Part shown: piece by piece, positions 1-30,531 of the stretch
Position numbering within the stretch: the first letter of the stretch is position 1
Layout of the letters: each line of letters opens with the position of its first letter
Origin: Gottschalkia acidurici 9a
GTDB lineage: Bacteria > Bacillota > Clostridia > Tissierellales > Gottschalkiaceae
DNA: 32,000 bases
Direction of reading: 5' to 3'
Assembly (NCBI RefSeq): GCF_000299355.1
Contig: NC_018664.1
Span: forward strand, 2,991,993 to 3,023,992
Program-made: the position numbers and the translations under genes
The notes under the pieces: model-generated
The model's database searches: none
What the model saw: only the letters and a program-made list of their open reading frames with translations
What the model was told of the DNA's origin: nothing

Positions 1-1136
1 ATATTTACACATCTTAAGGTAAATACAACTGCCACCACATAAAGAATCATTTCTGTATTGTATCTAACAACATCTGATATATCAAATAAAGATACTATAG
101 ACTTTGCACTTAAGCCTATAATTATCGATAATATTACTCCAATCACAACAGATATGAAAACAAATTGATATCCATATCTTTTAGCTTTTTCTTCATCACC
201 TAAACCTATTTGCTTTCCTATCATAACTACTGAAGCGCTGGCTAAGCCAAGTATAAGTACTGTAAAGAAGTTTTGAATAGTATTATATATCTGAACAGAA
301 GCTATAGCTTGTGTCCCCATACGTCCGTATACTATTGAATATATTATTATTCCAGATCCCCAGCACAATTCGTTCAATATAACATGTGTAACTACACTAT
401 ATATTCTCCTTACAAAATCTCTATTAAAGCTTAGTAAGTCAGATAACTTTCCCAATAAAACTTTATTAGTTTTTAACATATAAATACTTAATACTATGGT
501 TTCAAACCCTCTAGCTATAATAGTTCCAATAGCAGCCCCTTTAACACCCATAGCCGGAAACCCTAGTTTACCAAATATAAGTATATAGTTTATAACTCCA
601 TTACATATTAAAGCTAAAAAACTTACTACCATTGGAGGTATAGTTCTCTCTACTGATCTTGATGCATTTGCTATACCAAATGTTATAGCTGTAAATGTGT
701 AACTTAGAGAAACTAATTTTAGGTATACACTTCCGTATTTTATAACTTCAGGATCCGTATTAAATATTGAAATAATCGTATTTGAAAATGTGAGTATTCC
801 AGTCATAAATATTAGTGAAATTATAATATTACTAATCAGGCAAACACCCAATACTTTTCTTATGTTTCTCTCTTCCTTCATTCCCCAGTACTGAGATATA
901 AACACTCCACATCCACTACTGAGTCCCACTATCATGATATTAAAAAGAAGAAATATCTGATTTGATATACCTACTGATGCTATCTGTGCTTCTCCTAATC
1001 TTCCAACCATAAGTGTATCTAACATATTTATAGAAGATGCTATAAGATTCTGTATAACTACCGGAACTGCTATATAAAATAGTGTTCTATAGTATTCTTT
1101 ATCCTTAATCATATTACTTATAAAGCCTCTAGTCAT
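1..1136 (-). CDS. MATE family efflux transporter, 3' end runs off the window
   Basis: Manual minus-strand translation from ATG at 1136 (MTRGFISNMIKDKEYYRTLFYIAVPVVIQNLIASSINMLDTLMVGRLGEAQIASVGISNQIF...). It stays open to position 1 and has MATE-typical helices. Absent from the ORF track, probably because no stop lies in the window. Confidence 0.9.
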   Translation of the reverse strand, partial: MTRGFISNMIKDKEYYRTLFYIAVPVVIQNLIASSINMLDTLMVGRLGEAQIASVGISNQIFLLFNIMIVGLSSGCGVFISQYWGMKEERNIRKVLGVCLISNIIISLIFMTGILTFSNTIISIFNTDPEVIKYGSVYLKLVSLSYTFTAITFGIANASRSVERTIPPMVVSFLALICNGVINYILIFGKLGFPAMGVKGAAIGTIIARGFETIVLSIYMLKTNKVLLGKLSDLLSFNRDFVRRIYSVVTHVILNELCWGSGIIIYSIVYGRMGTQAIASVQIYNTIQNFFTVLILGLASASVVMIGKQIGLGDEEKAKRYGYQFVFISVVIGVILSIIIGLSAKSIVSLFDISDVVRYNTEMILYVVAVVFTLRCVN

Positions 1137-1357
1137 TTTTATAATACCCCCTTTTCTAATCCTTAAATATCTTTCTTCCTTTCTAATTATACTATAATTT
1201 ATATCAATTTACATGAAATAAGATTTTATTAATAATCTTAAAACCCTTAATAATCAATAGCTATATGTTAAAAGAAATTTACCGAAATATAAAATATTTC
1301 ACAGCTATAATTAATATAAAAAACTCTTATCTCATATATTTATGATGAGGTGAGTTT

Positions 1358-2965
1358 ATGAAAATAGCTATATATTCTCGAAAATCGAGACTTACAGGAA
1401 AGGGTGAATCTATTCAAAACCAAATTGAATTATGTAAAGAGTATGCAAATAAGCATTTCGATGTAGATGAGTTTTTAATATATGAAGATGAAGGATTTTC
1501 TGGTGGCTCATCTGATAGACCCCAATATCAACTTATGATAAAAGATGCTAAAAAAAACGTTTTCAATATATTAATGTGCTATAGATTAGATAGAATAAGT
1601 AGAAATATATCTGATTTTTCTGATACTATAGCAACTTTGCAATCTAATAATATTTCATTTATTTCTCTTAGAGAACAATTTGATACTTCTACTCCTATGG
1701 GTAGAGCCATGATGTATATTGCTAGTGTATTTGCACAATTAGAAAGAGAAACTATTGCTGAACGTATAAAGGACAATATGCTAAGATTAGCCCGTTCTGG
1801 AAGATGGCTTGGTGGTAACTGCCCTACAGGATATACTTCAGAACCTATGGAGTACTATGATGATAATATGAATAAAAAGACCATGTATATGTTATCGCAA
1901 GTTCCTAAAGAACTGTTTATAGTCAAAAAAATATTTAGTAATTATCTAGAGCTTGGAAGCTTAAATCAAGTAGAAGTATGGTCTATTCAGAATAATATTA
2001 GAACTCCTAATAATAACTACTTTGATATAACCTCCATAAGAGGAATTCTCACTAATATGGTATATGTAAAGTCCGATAAAAAAATATATGATTATTGTAA
2101 AAAGTCAGATATGGATATAGCTTCAGATATATCAGAATTTGATGGGGTACATGGCCTCATGGTTTATAACAAAAATCTTATACGAAAAGGAAAAGCTAAT
2201 AAACTTCGTCCCACTTCCGAATGGATAGTAGCCGTTGGTAAGCATAAAGGTATTATTTCTTCTGATGACTTTATTAAGGTACAAAATAAGCTTAAGAAAA
2301 ATAAGCATAAAGCTCCTAAAAAAATCTCTAATAATATAGCTCTTCTTAGTTCATTATTGACTTGTCATAGTTGTAATAGTAAATTAAGAACTACTTATGG
2401 TAACAAAAGAAAAGATGGAACTAGACCACACTATTATAAATGCATATTTAAGGAAAAATCCAAAGGTGATGGATGTAATATAAAGAATTTAAATGGTAGT
2501 AAAACTGATAGTTTAATTTTAAATGAAGTTAAAAAGATTAGTGTAAACTATAATAGTTATTATAGTTATCTAAAAAGTCAGCGAAATGATATCTTATTTT
2601 TAAACTCCTTGTATAAAGATAATTCTAGCTCTATAGAAAAGGAAATAGATAAGTACAAGAGTATGATAAGAAAATTGACGATAACTTTAAGCGAAACTAC
2701 AGATTCCAGCTCTAGCAAGCACATAATAAATCAAATAGAAGATCTAGATAAAAAAATAGTAAAAGCTACTAATGACCTTAAGGTTTTAAATTCTAAAAGC
2801 TCTTTTTCTCCCTCTGATACATCCAGTATACAATTTCTAGAGACCCTTATTGATGACTTTAATTCTGCTATAGATAGTCTTAGTTTCAGTGAACAAAAAC
2901 ATTTATTGTCTTCAATTATAAGTAAAATTTTATGGAACGGGGAAAATTTAGAGGTTCATCTATAG
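1358..2965 (+). CDS. Large serine recombinase / site-specific integrase
   Basis: 535 aa; N-terminal resolvase domain (AIYSRKSRLTGKGESIQNQIELCKEYA, YRLDRISRN, PMGRAMMYIASVFAQLERETIAERI), recombinase domain, zinc ribbon CHSC...C...C, C-terminal coiled coil. Confidence 0.95.
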   Translation: MKIAIYSRKSRLTGKGESIQNQIELCKEYANKHFDVDEFLIYEDEGFSGGSSDRPQYQLMIKDAKKNVFNILMCYRLDRISRNISDFSDTIATLQSNNISFISLREQFDTSTPMGRAMMYIASVFAQLERETIAERIKDNMLRLARSGRWLGGNCPTGYTSEPMEYYDDNMNKKTMYMLSQVPKELFIVKKIFSNYLELGSLNQVEVWSIQNNIRTPNNNYFDITSIRGILTNMVYVKSDKKIYDYCKKSDMDIASDISEFDGVHGLMVYNKNLIRKGKANKLRPTSEWIVAVGKHKGIISSDDFIKVQNKLKKNKHKAPKKISNNIALLSSLLTCHSCNSKLRTTYGNKRKDGTRPHYYKCIFKEKSKGDGCNIKNLNGSKTDSLILNEVKKISVNYNSYYSYLKSQRNDILFLNSLYKDNSSSIEKEIDKYKSMIRKLTITLSETTDSSSSKHIINQIEDLDKKIVKATNDLKVLNSKSSFSPSDTSSIQFLETLIDDFNSAIDSLSFSEQKHLLSSIISKILWNGENLEVHL

Positions 2966-2986
2966 TTCGATTACTTTTATACCTAG

Positions 2987-3727
2987 ATTGACTCTGCTAT
3001 ACAGTGGGTTATAGAAACAAAAGATAAATATAAAACTAAGATATTAAATCTTTCTTTAGGTACACCTGCTAATAACCCGCTAAATTCAGACCCTTTAGTT
3101 AGAGCAGTAAATGAAGCTGTAAATGCTGGATTAACTGTTGTTGTTGCCGCAGGTAATAGTGGTCCTAACTCCCAAACTATACTTTCTCCTGGAAACAGTC
3201 CATCAGTTATAACAGTTGGTGCTGTAAATGATAGAAGTGCTAATGATAATAGTTATACAATAGCTCCATTCTCAAGTAGAGGGCCAACTAAAGAAGGACT
3301 AAGAAAGCCTGATGTAGTAGCTCCAGGGGTAAATATCAATTCATTATCTAGTGCGAAATTAGATCAGTATAAATCTTTGAGTGGAACATCTATGGCAACT
3401 CCTGTAGTATCAGGTTGTCTTGCAGTTCTACTTAGTCAGGATAGTAGCTTAGGTTCAAAGCAATTAAAGTCTCAAATTATAAACTCTTGTACTAGTCTTA
3501 ATGAAAGATCAGAGAATCAAGGTGCAGGTGTAGTTAACTTGAGTAAGCTATTTAAACATAATAGAAAGCCTGTCCTTACACCTAATAAATCACGCCCTTT
3601 ACCTGATAATGCACGTCCTTTACCTGATAATGCAGACAGTGGTGAAAGAATAAATCAACAAGATTTCATTTCTAGCGGATTAATTTTTATGCTATTCTTA
3701 ATTCTGCTTTTGATAAGAGTAATATAA
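2987..3727 (+). pseudogene. 5'-truncated S8 subtilisin-like serine protease with C-terminal TM segment (C-terminal part of a split gene)
   Basis: Continuous open frame IDSAIQWVIETKDKYKTKILNLSLGTPANNPLNSDPLVRAVNEAVNAGLTVVVAAGNSGP...FSSRGPTKEGLRKPDVVAPGV...LSGTSMATPVVSG. The oxyanion Asn (AAGNSG) and catalytic Ser (GTSMATP) are present; the Asp (DTG) and His motifs are missing. An in-frame TAG sits at 2984..2986. Confidence 0.88.
3591..3632 (+). repeat. Two 21-bp tandem units CACG[C/T]CCTTTACCTGATAATG
   Basis: 3591..3611 and 3612..3632 differ at one base; encode repeated RPLPDNA upstream of the C-terminal TM segment. Confidence 0.85.
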
Positions 3728-3734
3728 TAAAAGA

Positions 3735-3786
3735 AAAAGTCCAAAAAGAAATTTTAAGTTTAAATCATTTCTTTTGGACTTTTTTA
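3735..3786. terminator. Rho-independent terminator, probably bidirectional, between convergent protease remnant and M23 gene
   Basis: AAAAGTCCAAAA(A)GAAAT / ATTTCTTTTGGACTTTTTT inverted repeat with flanking A and T tracts. Confidence 0.8.
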
Positions 3787-3802
3787 TTTTTTCTCTTACT
3801 TT

Positions 3803-5215
3803 TTAATTTAAATAACTTTCAGGATTTTGAGCTACTCCATTTTTTCTAACTTCAAAGTGTAAGTGTGGACCCGTACTTCTTCCTGTATTACCTACTGCTG
3901 CTATAACATCACCTTTTGCAATCTTGTCACCTTTGTTAACATAAAGTTTACTACAATGAGCATATCTTGTCACATATCCATTCCCATGGTCTATTTCCAC
4001 CATATATCCATATCCGCCATTGTTGTATCCTGAATAAATTACAGTTCCACCATCTGATGCCGTTATAGGAGTTCCTATCCTTGCTCCTATATCTATTCCT
4101 TGATGACTTTTTCCCCATCTAGCTCCGAATCTAGATGTAATAGTGCCCCTTGCAGGTGTCATAAAGTGCCCAGTTGCAGCATGTATAGGAATTGCTTTAG
4201 TTCCTTTTACTATAACTTGAGCTATAGGTTGTGAAAGTATTGTTTCACTCAATATCTCTTTCGCTACTTCTATTCCATTATGCTTTTCTACTTTAGCAAC
4301 TACTTCAGTTTTTCCTGACACACCTTCTACTTTTATTTTTTGTTCATTTGTATATAGTGAATCATCAACTTCATATTGAGTATCAAATGCTACTTCCTCT
4401 GTATGTTTTTGTTCTTCATAAGTTGCTACAGTTATAAACGGTTTATGTATAGGTATATTTACCTCTTCACCTGGCTTTATATTTTTAGCATCTTTCCCAG
4501 GATTGGCTTCCTCTATGTCCTCCATATTTACATTATAATCTAGAGCCATAGTCCAATAATTTTCGTTCTCTTTTACTAAATGTTTAGTTTCTTCAATATT
4601 TCCTGTTTTAAGTGTTTCTAATGTGGTATCTATATCAGTAATAAGTGATACAGGAACTTTCTTTTTTACTAACTTTACATCTTCTAGTATTTTTACATCT
4701 TCTACTTTTACATTCTCATCATCTGATGCATGTGAGAATGGTTCTTTAAATTTTTCTATTGCTTGTTTTGCTACTTCTTCAGATTTAACATAAGCTGCAT
4801 CTTTATCGTTTACTTTTATAGCATAGCCAACTGCACTAAATGTTAAGCTATCATTTATATTCTTTTTGATAGTATTTTTTGAAGTAAGTTCTTCGTCTTT
4901 TACGTGAGTACTTACAAAAGCTATCTTTTCATTTATTTTTATTTTATTATCATACTTTTTAGATAAGTCTTTTTCTATTTCTTTTACTAAACTAAGAACT
5001 TCCTCTTTATTTCTAGCTATACCCACGTCTTTTTTACCAAATACAACTTTTACTGCTCTAGTAGCTATCTCATATCTTTTATATTGAACTAATCCAACTA
5101 TTGATATGACCGTAATTAATATCAGCACTATATTCATCTTATTATTTTTAAAATTATTTAAGTTTAATGTTTCCTTAAACTTTTTTATTTTCTTATTTAA
5201 AAGCGAATTACTCAT
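3803..5215 (-). CDS. M23 family peptidoglycan metallopeptidase with G5-like domain
   Basis: 470 aa; N-terminal TM segment; G5-like region (VEGVSGKTEVVAKVEKHNGIEVAKEIL); M23 motifs HQGIDIGARIGTPITASDGGTVIYSG and GPHLHFEVRKNG. Confidence 0.92.
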   Translation of the reverse strand: MSNSLLNKKIKKFKETLNLNNFKNNKMNIVLILITVISIVGLVQYKRYEIATRAVKVVFGKKDVGIARNKEEVLSLVKEIEKDLSKKYDNKIKINEKIAFVSTHVKDEELTSKNTIKKNINDSLTFSAVGYAIKVNDKDAAYVKSEEVAKQAIEKFKEPFSHASDDENVKVEDVKILEDVKLVKKKVPVSLITDIDTTLETLKTGNIEETKHLVKENENYWTMALDYNVNMEDIEEANPGKDAKNIKPGEEVNIPIHKPFITVATYEEQKHTEEVAFDTQYEVDDSLYTNEQKIKVEGVSGKTEVVAKVEKHNGIEVAKEILSETILSQPIAQVIVKGTKAIPIHAATGHFMTPARGTITSRFGARWGKSHQGIDIGARIGTPITASDGGTVIYSGYNNGGYGYMVEIDHGNGYVTRYAHCSKLYVNKGDKIAKGDVIAAVGNTGRSTGPHLHFEVRKNGVAQNPESYLN

Positions 5216-8909: not shown

Positions 8910-8986
8910 TGGAGCTGGTGAGAGGACTTGAACCCCCAACCTACTGATTACAAGTCAGTTGCTCTACCGATTGAGCCACACCAGCA
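8910..8986 (-). tRNA. tRNA-Thr (TGT)
   Basis: GCTGGTGTGGCTCAATCGGTAGAGCAACTGACTTGTAATCAGT...TTCAAGTCCTCTCACCAGCTCCA; cloverleaf with encoded CCA. Confidence 0.95.
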
Positions 8987-8996
8987 ACTTACTTAT

Positions 8997-9072
8997 GGCG
9001 ACCTGGAAGGGACTCGAACCCTCGACCTCCAGCGTGACAGGCTGGCATTCTAACCAACTGAACTACCAGGCC
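8997..9072 (-). tRNA. tRNA-Asp (GTC)
   Basis: GGCCTGGTAGTTCAGTTGGTTAGAATGCCAGCCTGTCACGCTGG...CCA; anticodon loop CTGTCAC. Confidence 0.95.
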
Positions 9073-9094
9073 ATATTGTTTTTTACTTATTTTA

Positions 9095-9170
9095 TGGTGG
9101 GCGTGACAGGGCTCGAACCTGTGACCCCCTGCTTGTAAGGCAGGTGCTCTCCCAGCTGAGCTACACGCCC
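9095..9170 (-). tRNA. tRNA-Val (TAC)
   Basis: GGGCGTGTAGCTCAGCTGGGAGAGCACCTGCCTTACAAGCAGG...CACGCCCACCA. Confidence 0.95.
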
Positions 9171-9208
9171 ATAACTACATTATGGTATCTGGGAAAATAT
9201 TATTTGTT

Positions 9209-9283
9209 TGGTGACCCTACCGGGATTCGAACCCGGGTTACCGCCGTGAAAGGGCGGTGTCTTAACCGCTTGACCATAGGGCC
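9209..9283 (-). tRNA. tRNA-Glu (TTC)
   Basis: GGCCCTATGGTCAAGCGGTTAAGACACCGCCCTTTCACGGCGG...TAGGGTCACCA. Confidence 0.95.
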
Positions 9284-9291
9284 TTTTAAGT

Positions 9292-9367
9292 TGGTGACCC
9301 ATCCGCGACTCGAACGCGGGACACCCTGATTAAAAGTCAGGTGCTCTACCGACTGAGCTAATAGGTC
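9292..9367 (-). tRNA. tRNA-Lys (TTT)
   Basis: GACCTATTAGCTCAGTCGGTAGAGCACCTGACTTTTAATCAGG...ATGGGTCACCA. Confidence 0.95.
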
Positions 9368-24010: not shown

Positions 24011-24087
24011 TGGTCGGGGTGGAGGGACTCGAACCCCCGGCCCCATGGTCCCAAACCACGTACGCTACCAAACTGCGCTACACCCCG
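24011..24087 (-). tRNA. tRNA-Pro (TGG)
   Basis: CGGGGTGTAGCGCAGTTTGGTAGCGTACGTGGTTTGGGACCATG...CACCCCGACCA. Confidence 0.95.
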
Positions 24088-24135
24088 ATATATATCATTT
24101 GATTTTAATAAAAATCCAAACTAATTAAGCATTAT

Positions 24136-24224
24136 TGGCGGAGGAGGTGGGATTCGAACCCACGTGGGCTTGCACCCTAACGGTTTTCAAGACCGCCCCG
24201 TTATGACCACTTCGGTACCCCTCC
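24136..24224 (-). tRNA. tRNA-Ser (TGA)
   Basis: GGAGGGGTACCGAAGTGGTCATAACGGGGCGGTCTTGAAAACCG...long variable arm...CTCCTCCGCCA. Confidence 0.93.
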
Positions 24225-24228
24225 GGAT

Positions 24229-24304
24229 TGGTGATCCATCCGCGACTCGAACGCGGGACACCCTGATTAAAAGTCAGGTGCTCTACCGACTGAGCTAATA
24301 GATC
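24229..24304 (-). tRNA. tRNA-Lys (TTT), second copy
   Basis: GATCTATTAGCTCAGTCGG...CTTTTAA...ATGGATCACCA. Confidence 0.95.
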
Positions 24305-24320
24305 ACAAAATATTTACTTC

Positions 24321-24396
24321 TGGCTGGGGTAGCAGGACTCGAACCTACGCATGCCAGAATCAAAATCTGGTGCCTTACCAACTTGGCGATACCCCA
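24321..24396 (-). tRNA. tRNA-Gln (TTG)
   Basis: TGGGGTATCGCCAAGTTGGTAAGGCACCAGATTTTGATTCTGG...ACCCCAGCCA. Confidence 0.95.
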
Positions 24397-24416
24397 ACAT
24401 GTTATATATTATTTAT

Positions 24417-24493
24417 TGGCGTGCCTACAGGGATTCGAACCCCGGACACTCGGCTTAGAAGGCCGATGCTCTATCCAGCTGAGCTATAGGCAC
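24417..24493 (-). tRNA. tRNA-Arg (TCT)
   Basis: GTGCCTATAGCTCAGCTGGATAGAGCATCGGCCTTCTAAGCCGA...TAGGCACGCCA. Confidence 0.95.
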
Positions 24494-24501
24494 TCGTTTT
24501 T

Positions 24502-24575
24502 TGGAGCGGGTGAAGGGAATCGAACCCTCGCAACTGGCTTGGAAGGCCAGGGCTCTACCACTGAGCTACACCCGC
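24502..24575 (-). tRNA. tRNA-Gly (TCC)
   Basis: GCGGGTGTAGCTCAGTGGTAGAGCCCTGGCCTTCCAAGCCAG...CACCCGCTCCA. Confidence 0.95.
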
Positions 24576-24586
24576 ATATTATATTT

Positions 24587-24672
24587 TGGTGGAGGAGACT
24601 GGATTCGAACCAGTGAAAGCGAAGCTAACGGATTTACAGTCCGTCCCCTTTGGCCAGCTCGGGAACTCCTCC
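24587..24672 (-). tRNA. tRNA-Tyr (GTA)
   Basis: GGAGGAGTTCCCGAGCTGGCCAAAGGGGACGGACTGTAAATCCG...long variable arm...CTCCTCCACCA. Confidence 0.95.
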
Positions 24673-24676
24673 ATAT

Positions 24677-24752
24677 TGGTGGGCGCGACAGGGCTCGAAC
24701 CTGTGACCCCCTGCTTGTAAGGCAGGTGCTCTCCCAGCTGAGCTACGCGCCC
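24677..24752 (-). tRNA. tRNA-Val (TAC), second copy
   Basis: GGGCGCGTAGCTCAGCTGGGAGAGCACCTGCCTTACAAGCAGG...CGCGCCCACCA. Confidence 0.95.
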
Positions 24753-24787
24753 GTAATTTTATTACGGATTTCTGGGATTTTCTTTTT

Positions 24788-24862
24788 TGGTGACCCTACC
24801 GGGATTCGAACCCGGGTTACCGCCGTGAAAGGGCGGTGTCTTAACCGCTTGACCATAGGGCC
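24788..24862 (-). tRNA. tRNA-Glu (TTC), second copy
   Basis: Same sequence as the copy at 9209..9283. Confidence 0.95.
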
Positions 24863-24869
24863 ATCTATA

Positions 24870-24946
24870 TGGTAGCGGTGAACGGATTTGAACCGCTGAC
24901 ACTGCGGGTATGAACCGCATGCTCTAGCCAACTGAGCTACACCGCC
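24870..24946 (-). tRNA. tRNA-Met (CAT), elongator type
   Basis: GGCGGTGTAGCTCAGTTGGCTAGAGCATGCGGTTCATACCCGCA...CACCGCTACCA. Confidence 0.9.
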
Positions 24947-25024
24947 ATATTCAACTCGTAAAACTGATTTTTTCCAAGTTAATACTCAGCCTTAAGCTGA
25001 GTTCATGTTTTAGTTTATATATTT

Positions 25025-25099
25025 TGGTTGCGGGGACCGGATTTGAACCGATGACCTTCGGGTTATGAGCCCGACGAGCTGCCGCTGCTCCACCCCGCG
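25025..25099 (-). tRNA. Initiator tRNA-fMet (CAT)
   Basis: CGCGGGGTGGAGCAGCGGCAGCTCGTCGGGCTCATAACCCGAAGG...CCCCGCAACCA; unpaired first base and GGG/CCC anticodon stem. Confidence 0.93.
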
Positions 25100-25112
25100 A
25101 TAATAGTTATCT

Positions 25113-25223
25113 AGCAACGTCTTACTCTCCCAGGCAGTTTCCCACCAAGTACCATTAGCGCTGAAGGGCTTAACTTCTGTGTTCGGTATGGGAACAGGTG
25201 TGACCCCTTCGCTATCGTCACTA
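25113..25223 (-). rRNA. rrf: 5S ribosomal RNA, distal copy
   Basis: Plus strand AGCAACGTCTTACTCTCCCAGGCAGTTTCCCACC...GTGTTCGGTATGGGAACAGGTGTGACCCC...TCGTCACT. Ends approximate. Confidence 0.92.
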
Positions 25224-25241
25224 AATATAATAACATTTTTT

Positions 25242-25330
25242 TGGTGCCGAGGACCGGAATCGAACCGGTACGATCTTTAAGGATCGCAGGATTTTAAGTC
25301 CTGTGCGTCTGCCAGTTCCGCCACCCCGGC
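25242..25330 (-). tRNA. tRNA-Leu (TAA)
   Basis: GCCGGGGTGGCGGAACTGGCAGACGCACAGGACTTAAAATCCTG...CCTCGGCACCA. Confidence 0.95.
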
Positions 25331-25336
25331 AAAAAA

Positions 25337-25411
25337 TGGCTCTCAGGGTGGGACTCGAACCCACAACCTACCGATTAACAGTCGGGTGCTCCACCGTTGA
25401 GCTACCTAAGA
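25337..25411 (-). tRNA. tRNA-Asn (GTT)
   Basis: TCTTAGGTAGCTCAACGGTGGAGCACCCGACTGTTAATCGG...CCTGAGAGCCA. Confidence 0.94.
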
Positions 25412-25420
25412 ATAAAAACC

Positions 25421-25532
25421 AGCAACGTCTTACTCTCCCAGGCAGTCTCCCGCCAAGTACCATCAGCGCTGAAGGGCTTAACTTCTGTGTTCGGTATGGG
25501 AACAGGTGTGACCCCTTCGCTATCGTCACTGG
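25421..25532 (-). rRNA. rrf: 5S ribosomal RNA, proximal copy
   Basis: Same 5S signature sequence, adjacent to the 23S 3' end. Ends approximate. Confidence 0.92.
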
Positions 25533-25604
25533 ATTTCTTTGCTTTTTTAAAGATGTTTTGCACCTTCAAAACTACACAGCGATTAGATTATTCTTTAATA
25601 TATT

Positions 25605-28537
<2,933 letters not shown>

Positions 28538-28707
28538 CAGTTAGTAAGTAAATATCAAATAAGTTTGACATTCACTACTCAATTTATTATTGAGATTTAA
28601 TTTTCCTTAATATATTAATATATCTCGGTTAATTGTATTTTAATCTATTTCGCTGTGTAGTTTTCAAGGTACAAATGAAATTACGACAACATCTTATAGG
28701 TTTTTAT

Positions 28708-28783
28708 GGTGGAGATGAGGAGATTCGAACTCCTGACCCCCTGCTTGCAAGGCAGGTGCTCTCCCAACTGAGCTACACCCCCG
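28708..28783 (-). tRNA. tRNA-Ala (TGC) in the 16S-23S spacer
   Basis: GGGGGTGTAGCTCAGTTGGGAGAGCACCTGCCTTGCAAGCAGG...CATCTCCACCA. Confidence 0.95.
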
Positions 28784-28874
28784 CATACCTAAAGTCGTCT
28801 CTGAAATCTAAGATTTCTTCGTAACTTCTATTTCTGAGAGTTTTGGTCTCTCAAAATTAAACAGTAAAAAGCGT

Positions 28875-30407
<1,533 letters not shown>

Positions 30408-30531
30408 TAAAAGTTTTCTGTCTCAGCTTCTGCTGACTGCTCTATTTGATGTTGAGCTTCATTTGTTATTAATTCTAGGAATTAACTTGCTTTTTACTGT
30501 TTAATTTTCAAAGACCAAAGTCTGCTTTATT

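Follow-up and report, generated by a model that had tools for sequence, protein, structure and literature searches.

A compact large serine recombinase element splits an S8 protease gene in Gottschalkia acidurici: a candidate skin-like intervening element

Gene-intervening elements show mobile DNA becoming part of a developmental programme, and few of their target genes have been described. The precedents considered here were skin, SPbeta, vfbin, vrin, gin and yin; the genes in which intervening elements were found in the literature are sigK, spoVFB, spoVR, spsM, gerE and yabG, and none was found in the gene of an S8 protease. Excision of such an element, as in the case of yin, restores the interrupted gene (yabG) and yields a circle (PMC10747680). 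The present analysis concerned a stretch of 32,000 nucleotides of Gottschalkia (formerly Clostridium) acidurici 9a (contig NC_018664.1, positions 2,991,993 to 3,023,992), hereafter the window. At its left end, a large serine recombinase (LSR) gene is directly followed by the 3' half of a gene for an S8 (AprX-like) protease, and an earlier note on this DNA had taken the junction for the boundary of a possible skin-like developmental element. That an element splits the S8 gene can be regarded as established, and our data suggest a miniature, non-phage, skin-like gene-intervening element in a target gene not reported before. New aspects are the tail-anchored S8 protease as a target and the unusually small size of the element, which combines a recombination module with a transporter. 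The host, a soil bacterium, is a cultured type strain with a complete genome, whose genome paper makes no mention of the element (host sources: PMC3519856, PMC5737214).

The recombinase matched the Pfam families Resolvase, Recombinase and Zn_ribbon_recom (E 4e-37, 5e-18 and 1e-8; PF00239 at residues 3-150, PF07508 at 185-315, PF13408 at 329-392) as well as PHROG 95 'integrase' (E 8e-105), and both the catalytic motif YSRKS and DRISR were invariant across LSR alignment A1. It is a member of the large serine recombinases (phage-type serine integrases), only distantly related to the integrases of cultured phages (about 40% identity). Its TAG stop codon (2963-2965) is followed, after 21 bp that end with an in-frame TAG at 2984-2986, by a frame of 246 codons, open from 2987 to 3724 and closed by the stop at 3725-3727. 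This frame lies on the same strand as the LSR gene and covers just positions 101-288 of the 288 in the Pfam Peptidase_S8 profile (E 1e-35), about 60% of the domain. The oxyanion-Asn and catalytic-Ser motifs were present, those of the catalytic Asp and His were absent, and a scan of the frame found no ATG, GTG or TTG before 3377. Coordinates, frame, shared orientation and motif content thus all bore out the description in the earlier note. The LSR/S8 junction recurred at identical codons in at least eight independent contigs, showing that the arrangement is not due to chance.

The missing half had been predicted to lie beyond the left edge of the window, past the gene of a MATE-family efflux transporter, and this is where it was located by a search with the N-terminal half of a relative's S8 gene. 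AFS79829.1, a 204-aa 'peptidase S8/S53 family protein' that ends at ...GGGNTSDIVSAIQ (...NTSDIVSAIQ, then the stop), carries the DTG and HGTH motifs with the catalytic Asp and His. It precedes the LSR (AFS79833.1) by four accession numbers, which leaves three genes between them. Both element ends were visible in four metagenome contigs (L004, L005, L006 and L167) and in G. purinilytica (L171 and L172). The gene order of these complete elements was the S8 N-half (203-207 aa, plus strand), a small open reading frame (ORF) of 54-57 aa (minus), a polysaccharide deacetylase gene (minus, in Gottschalkia only), the MATE gene (454-461 aa, minus), the LSR gene (plus) and the S8 C-half (plus), the MATE orthologues occupying the same place within all six elements. 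Element size was 3.3 kb in the metagenome contigs and 4.4 kb in G. purinilytica, where the deacetylase gene lies between the small ORF and the MATE gene (L171/L172:10997-11752). With three genes implied by its accession numbers, G. acidurici agrees with the 4.4-kb version, and the part of the element to the left of the window very probably holds a polysaccharide deacetylase gene and a 57-aa ORF. In C. difficile, the polysaccharide deacetylases CD1319, CD3248 and CD3257 are sigma-E-dependent (Table S6, PMC7438776).

Apart from the LSR, itself of phage-integrase type, the complete elements contained only the small ORF, the MATE gene and, where present, the deacetylase gene. No phage structural, replication or lysis genes were found in them, and a prophage or defective prophage was rejected on these grounds. 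According to the earlier note, the same truncated gene in relatives with no recombinase would speak against an LSR element; none was found within the clade of the window. In Sporosalibacterium faouarense no LSR adjoins the S8 half, one being located instead within a 74-kb element. The nearly identical contigs L005 and L006 differed at 5 of 4,900 positions, one of them (T>A, L005:9950 versus L006:9950) turning a Leu codon of the LSR into TAA with loss of the last 26 residues; this may be an artefact of assembly or point to a recombinase in decay in one of the populations.

In the relatives with both ends visible, attL and attR share a short direct repeat with the core TCTGC, flanked by inverted arms, which supplies the att-like bounding repeat expected by the earlier note. 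In L004, TCTGC was the sole block common to attL and attR, placing the crossover inside the core. Four reconstructed attP sites were imperfect palindromes with the best dyad centre on TC and 15-19 of 26 arm positions complementary; this symmetry was measured in the relatives, the window itself containing attR only. LSR attachment sites typically measure about 40-50 bp and show an imperfect dyad around a central non-palindromic dinucleotide, and such symmetry is present in the relatives. In the window, crossover is predicted at the dinucleotide TC (2993-2994), with which the Ser codon of ...SAIQWV begins. The attR arm of the window is homologous to those of L004 and L172 (..ATTACTT.TTTA..), where it is the inverted partner of the attL arm, and the G. 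acidurici attL arm is predicted to read approximately ..TAGGTATAAAAGTAATCGAA, roughly complementary to window 2966..2992. An inverted-repeat search around attR, limited to the window, was uninformative, the partner arm at attL being outside. The stop codons of the LSR gene and of the small ORF both lie within the palindromic arms, so that on the excised circle attP would be confined to the narrow space between two convergent genes, in a highly compact arrangement.

Excision in silico, performed on the relatives and on G. acidurici, yielded ...TSDIVSAI(Q/D/A)WVI..., matching full-length homologues. The uninterrupted homologues with which the earlier note had wanted the locus compared do exist, and read straight through the break point as ...TSDI(I/V)SAI(Q/E)WVIETKD.... 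Joining AFS79829.1 to the C-half of the window gave a protein of 444 aa with a single uninterrupted Peptidase_S8 match (profile 1-288, E 7e-58), and only after joining were the catalytic Asp, His and Ser and the oxyanion Asn united in one S8 domain. The locus is, in other words, a split protein-coding gene whose halves are intact, co-oriented and precisely re-joinable.

The state of both halves was assessed by pairwise Nei-Gojobori estimates between lineages. The dN/dS ratios were 0.10-0.23 for the S8 N-half, 0.12-0.27 for the S8 C-half, 0.08-0.26 for the small ORF, 0.08-0.23 for MATE and 0.10-0.24 for the LSR, at dS values from 0.7 to above 2 throughout (0.7-3 for the S8 halves), synonymous sites of these lineages being near saturation. 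The flanking genes for WalR, M23 peptidase, DnaD and DnaI showed the same range of dN/dS and dS. No stop codon or frameshift was found in either S8 half across about seven lineages at a dS of about 1, which extends to both halves what the earlier note had remarked of the retained one, namely that it bears no inactivating mutation. LSR and MATE identities tracked S8 identity (r about 0.89; five taxa, 10 pairs). A neighbour-joining tree of the S8 catalytic domain recovered the Gottschalkia clade as monophyletic, with G. acidurici, G. purinilytica and 13 protein clusters as its 15 tips, all of them interrupted at the Ser-Ala-Ile (SAI) site. The protein search reached no further than about 1.75 times the query length (246-aa, 203-aa and 141-aa queries gave proteins of up to 431, 353 and 247 aa); uninterrupted clade members (444-457 aa) could therefore have been missed, and their absence is weak evidence.

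The simplest reading of these data would be a single old insertion that was passed on vertically while selection maintained the two halves. Such conservation would not be seen in a gene without any chance of expression, and the halves must hence be rejoined at some point of the life cycle. The selection data strongly imply that the element is still excised to rebuild the protease gene, and the co-divergence of element and host is direct evolutionary evidence that the split gene remains in use.

As to the timing of excision, terminal or subterminal endospores are formed by both G. acidurici and G. purinilytica, and both species possess spo0A, sigF, sigE, sigG and sigK (PMC3519856, PMC5737214), which places the element, like other intervening elements, in an endospore-forming host. 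The window was scored with a position weight matrix (PWM) derived from 37 C. difficile sigma-E promoters that have experimental support (Table S6, PMC7438776). The best of the 63,936 positions scored on both strands of the window was the site just upstream of the LSR gene (1312..1340), with 18.2 bits; the next best position reached 13.1, and the leave-one-out median of the training set was 11.8 bits. A site at the same position preceded the G. purinilytica LSR gene (11.8 bits), and the corresponding L004 site scored 14.3. In B. subtilis, the skin recombinase gene spoIVCA depends on sigma-E and SpoIIID (PMC517825), and the LSR gene of the window is likewise preceded by a predicted sigma-E-type promoter. 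Excision in the sporulating mother cell appears as the best-supported timing, favoured by the promoter data though well short of certain.

The small ORF matched no Pfam or PHROG family. A profile of its four copies identified homologues of 54-82 aa in 20 further loci, all of which had been fetched solely for encoding LSR relatives. In 12 of these the small ORF was located 146-255 bp upstream of the LSR gene and divergently transcribed (L010, L012, L014, L015, L018, L019, L020, L023, L035, L041, L075 and L087). The paired proteins, 54-63 aa long and from Clostridia and IMG/VR prophages, followed the pattern ..I.V.VNIPDKE...LM.RAIA.II..RINKLP...R...Y..IL..LK. The small ORF is thus a conserved partner of this LSR subfamily, as expected of a cognate recombination directionality factor, for which it is a strong candidate. 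Serine integrases are genome-engineering tools whose directionality factors are hard to find, which makes this small family of practical interest.

A box made up of GAATAG(T/G)ACAA, 15 nt of spacer and (C/A)ATAnnnT was found 17-28 nt upstream of the start codon in nearly all small ORFs. The same architecture is seen in the sigma-E promoters of two C. difficile genes, CD1234, encoding the directionality factor of its skin element (GTATAAGACAAG...CATATTTT), and CD1884 (GAATAGGACAAT...CATAAAAT). The TAG(G/T)ACAA part fits the SpoIIID consensus of B. subtilis, WWRRACAR-Y. Recognition of the small-ORF promoter by sigma-K was ruled out, the spacing from AC to CATA being 13 nt and not 16-17.

Some sources designate homologues of the S8 protease as AprX-like or 'intracellular serine protease', and JGI names them 'serine protease AprX'. 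The rejoined protein starts with a pro-region that lacks a signal peptide and ends with an anchor. The Pro-rich linker before this anchor contains seven perfectly tandem-duplicated codons (RPLPDNA twice, window 3593..3634), and its length is very variable among relatives, giving rejoined proteins of 428-457 aa. No sporulation promoter was consistently recovered ahead of the S8 N-half by scans with consensus strings and PWMs; a WalR-box reading of this region was dropped since the repeat spacing did not fit. An intracellular S8 protease gene of C. difficile, CD2000 ('P-SigE?'), stands in the sigma-E-dependent promoter table together with three polysaccharide deacetylase genes (PMC7438776), which makes a mother-cell role plausible by analogy for the S8 protease.

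Taken together, these data suggest the following sequence of events. The element occupies the Ser-Ala-Ile codons of a tail-anchored AprX-like protease gene, the window holding the right end of a 4-kb-class element. As the C-half has no start codon and lies behind a stop, the protease cannot be expressed from the vegetative or germ-line chromosome. The LSR, aided by the small ORF as directionality factor, would recombine attL with attR at the TC of the TCTGC core, releasing a circle with a palindromic attP and rejoining the halves into the 444-aa protease gene. Timing would be set by mother-cell transcription, from the sigma-E-type promoter of the LSR gene and, in relatives, from the sigma-E/SpoIIID-like box of the small ORF. 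Excision would be confined to the mother cell as it differentiates terminally, with the element retained in the spore, and this would explain vertical inheritance through the whole Gottschalkia clade. We consider it moderately probable that LSR and small ORF excise the element in this manner, most likely in the sporulating mother cell, and rebuild the protease gene. The skin-like developmental part of the original proposal stands as an inference, in favour of which purifying selection on the S8 halves, co-divergence, the sigma-E-type promoter of the LSR gene and the candidate directionality factor with its CD1234-like box now speak.

The same S-A-I codons were broken in Brassicibacter mesophilus, Clostridiisalibacter paucivorans and Sporosalibacterium faouarense. 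In the last species (JAETGO010000017.1), the S8 halves are 74 kb apart on one contig and one strand (L170:10001-10624 and L003:10001-10696), the att pair forms a different palindrome (core TATAGTTAGTGC, arms CATTGCATTTTA), and the closest genomic relative of the window LSR (59% identity) lies within the intervening DNA, which also carries a GerA operon, two-component systems, a methyltransferase, a MORC-like ATPase, Fic and a small resolvase. In B. mesophilus, a prophage-like block with its own tyrosine integrase, an M78 peptidase/cI-like pair, AntA and RecT is located directly upstream of the S8-adjacent LSR (L001:1-8168), indicating a composite or nested element. One genome scan and one metagenome scan with the LSR alignment found no further S8-interrupting element and 160 more distant LSR loci.

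A second hot spot for breaks was found about 45 codons upstream of the SAI site, at the catalytic HGTH motif, where about 30 N-parts (P0137, P0140, P0148-P0180) ended with ...DDNGHGT(Q/H)VPCTV... and about 17 C-parts (P0017, P0019, P0025, P0031, P0040, P0043, P0078, P0109-P0120) began with MVHGTHVAG.... This junction was seen once in DNA, at position 7354 of L169 (L169:7340-7370, GTTCACGGTACCCATGTG); L169 (P0013) had been considered as a further SAI-site case, which was rejected once the break was placed at the His motif. Breaks at the HGTH site occurred in many lineages of Tissierellales, Sedimentibacter and Schnuerera, and could separate close relatives (P0040 broken, P0046 intact). Outside the Gottschalkia clade, interrupted and intact alleles were interspersed in the S8 tree, so that the S8 gene, like sigK, has been hit by mobile elements repeatedly. 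LSR relatives at 40-55% identity were common in prophages. In three loci the LSR stop was directly followed by the 3' fragment of an ABC-transporter ATPase gene (L009:11627-11830, L017:11563-11840, L022:5825-6040), with the pattern ...DIAEA.SMSD.V.VL...REAPEF..YF..IWKEL.

Several observations weigh against excision in the mother cell or against excision as such. No experimental or read-level evidence of excision was found: an exact-match search of a collection of 15 billion proteins recovered 0 of 5 in-silico rejoined proteins, and a junction-spanning query, within the reach of 1.75 times query length given above, found no fragment from the clade, matching only relatives of at most 68% identity that read through the break point. 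The sigma-E matrix stems from C. difficile, which belongs to a different family from the host, and LSR scores were not high in L167 or L006. The small-ORF promoters were moderate (median 7.3 bits, against 2.2 for control upstream regions with a 95th percentile of 9.8), and the small ORF, as mentioned, has no recognised family. The attL of G. acidurici itself was deduced from the N-half protein and the relatives. The S8 gene is no known sporulation gene, and upstream of its N-half only weak, inconsistent sigma-K-like sites were seen at three of five loci (L172, L170 and L167). It adjoins walRK and a cell-wall peptidase gene, a neighbourhood that could point to a vegetative cell-wall role of the protease. 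Finally, the same LSR/small-ORF family also splits the ABC ATPase gene, which is no recognised sporulation gene.

Some of these points would suit a reversible or stress-triggered switch, operating in some vegetative cells, where excision would turn on the protease, with re-integration through the efficient attP x attB reaction of the LSR. An analogue would be the Listeria comK prophage with its 'active lysogeny'. Purifying selection demands that the halves be rejoined somewhere and does not tell where; the walRK and M23/LysM/G5 peptidase neighbours fit a cell-envelope role in growing cells, and LSR relatives occur in a gene outside sporulation. Sub-populations with integrated and excised yin, varying with growth phase, are known in C. 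botulinum (PMC10747680). However, a non-replicating circle would be lost at division and cured, intact lineages would be expected, whereas none of the 15 clade tips was intact (an inconclusive count, the search being length-limited). The strongest promoter signal before the LSR gene is moreover of the mother-cell sigma-E type, and the promoter of the partner ORF resembles that of CD1234. We regard such a switch as the main rival explanation and as unlikely.

It could also be supposed that insertion was one-way, the protease gene being dead and the element a fixed remnant that no longer excises. The C-half without start codon, the premature LSR stop in one metagenome population (L005 versus L006, 26 codons lost) and the failure to find an excised form in any database searched would agree with this. 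A dead gene would, however, have gathered stops and frameshifts, whereas both halves are open with all catalytic motifs at dS 0.7-3, their dN/dS values (0.10-0.27) are the same as in essential neighbouring genes, purifying selection also acts on the LSR and the small ORF, and the att arms are conserved; this explanation is highly improbable. Hardly better is the probability of a currently mobile LSR/MATE mini-element that repeatedly hits the S8 site, the halves being intact because insertions are young. The interspersed alleles outside the clade, even among close relatives, the use of the same codons by elements of 3.3 kb, 4.4 kb, prophage-associated (Brassicibacter) and 74 kb (Sporosalibacterium) types, the second hot spot and the frequency of LSR relatives as prophage integrases would all be in agreement with it. 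Within the clade of the window, by contrast, element genes share the divergence pattern and dS of host genes, gene order is conserved and every member is interrupted, which fits one old vertical insertion, and we therefore judge it very unlikely for this locus.

A broader proposition, which we hold to be doubtful as a whole, runs as follows: the S8 enzyme would be a mother-cell sporulation or germination protease so far unrecognised and gated by DNA rearrangement; its gene would be a preferred landing site, hit at two independent hot spots (SAI and HGTH) across Tissierellia and Gottschalkiaceae; and the LSR/small-ORF module, through its GAATAG(T/G)ACAA...CATA promoter, would be a sigma-E/SpoIIID-wired recombination unit of wide distribution. 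If this were true, many integrated elements in Clostridia would, at sporulation, be lost from the chromosome of the mother cell, among them prophages in non-sporulation genes such as that of the ABC ATPase. For annotators, our reading implies that the paired 'truncated S8 peptidase' genes of many Tissierellia genomes are not pseudogenes.

The features of the locus are collected in Table 1. The MATE protein matched Pfam MatE (E 4e-48). The hairpin between the convergent S8 and M23-peptidase genes had a predicted RNA fold of -18 kcal/mol (z = -3.6; 0 of 200 shuffles folded equally well) and is probably a two-way terminator; a terminator scan and a sigma-70 promoter scan of 1100..3850 returned no terminator and promoter scores at chance level. 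To the right of the S8 C-half follow host housekeeping genes for an M23/G5/LysM peptidase, DnaD (AFS79836.1), DnaI, Ddh and the DnaB helicase, and further right rpsF-ssb, tRNAs and an rRNA operon. The latter, on the minus strand (24014-30409; 16S at 28885..30409, 23S at 25603..28538), has two 5S copies (25109..25225 and 25417..25533) interleaved with a long tRNA array, and a second cluster of five tRNAs is located at 8913..9367.

Table 1. Coordinates of the element end, the split S8 gene and adjoining features in the window
Feature	Position	Strand	Details
MATE-family efflux transporter gene (cargo)	1..1136	-	378 codons in the window, about 76 more past the left edge
Intergenic region between the divergent MATE and LSR genes	1137..1357		
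Sigma-E-type promoter candidate for the LSR gene	1312..1340	+	TAATATA, 14-nt spacer, CATATATT; ends 17 nt before ATG
LSR gene	1358..2965	+	535 aa; AFS79833.1 / WP_014968967.1; integrase/excisase of the element
Element-side (attP-derived) arm of attR	2966..2992	+	TTCGATTACTTTTATACCTAGATTGAC
Core TCTGC	2993..2997	+	Common to attL and attR
3' half of S8 (AprX-like) protease gene	2993..3727	+	Frame open from 2987, homology from Ser 2993
Oxyanion-Asn motif AAGNSGP, S8 C-half	3146..3166	+	
Catalytic-Ser motif GTSMATP, S8 C-half	3383..3403	+	
C-terminal membrane anchor (hydrophobic), S8 C-half	3677..3724	+	
Hairpin between convergent S8 and M23-peptidase genes	3733..3785		Host DNA

Comparison with known systems places the element, by its structure, with skin, gin and SPbeta. 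The SPbeta prophage (in spsM; SprA and SprB) goes with the concept of the 'site-specific recombination unit', in which an LSR, a small directionality factor and the att sites form a portable module, and sporulation promoters on the directionality factor time excision; the LSR/small-ORF pair described here likewise recurs as a module in many elements. SPbeta is, however, an active phage of 134 kb, whereas the Gottschalkia element has no phage genes. A similar way of life is led by the heterocyst elements of cyanobacteria (nifD, fdxN and hupL), which are developmentally excised, carry their recombinase at one end, are vertically inherited and interrupt genes needed only in a terminally differentiated cell. 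They belong to another phylum and another cell type, and their enzymes differ, XisA of the nifD element being a tyrosine recombinase and XisF of the fdxN element a serine recombinase. LSR transposons such as Tn4451 and Tn5397 (TnpX, TndX) need no protein but their LSR for excision and insertion, use GA-centred target sites and bring along resistance or conjugation genes. A transposon of this type was rejected on account of the predicted TC dinucleotide, the one fixed site, co-divergence with the host and the MATE cargo.

Like the Gottschalkia element, skin (sigK; skinBs with SpoIVCA, skinCd with CD1231 and CD1234) is an LSR element that splits a gene of an endospore former, leaves the halves on one strand and has att sites with a short common core and inverted arms. 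Its target is a sigma factor gene and not an S8 protease gene. In size, the 19 genes of skinCd (PMC5025042) and the 48 kb of skinBs (PMC517825) contrast with 3.3-4.4 kb free of phage genes, and a cargo of MATE, with or without polysaccharide deacetylase, is unlike that of skin. CD1234 of skinCd, with 72 aa, no database similarity (PMC5025042) and a sigma-E/SpoIIID promoter (Table S6, PMC7438776), is, like the small ORF of the element, a small orphan with a GAATAG(T/G)ACAA...CATA promoter.

Another such element is gin (gerE, Bacillus cereus ATCC 10987; PMC5595907), which likewise is no prophage; its rejoining depends on an LSR plus a small factor (GirC and GirX), the roles proposed here for the LSR and the small ORF. 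Its att sites contain a 9-bp common sequence in an imperfect inverted repeat, with cleavage predicted at the central dinucleotide, as here. However, gin has 28.6 kb and three recombinase genes and looks recently transferred, identical copies being found in two strains (PMC5595907), while the Gottschalkia element is smaller by a factor of about 7, encodes just one recombinase and has diverged together with its hosts throughout a whole family. The yin element also sits in a protease gene of a Clostridium-like spore former, C. botulinum (PMC10747680). There, yabG encodes a known sporulation-specific cysteine protease, and yin is prophage-like and was described in a single isolate (PMC10747680); the Gottschalkia interruption, in contrast, is fixed in its clade, recurs in many taxa and affects an S8 enzyme.

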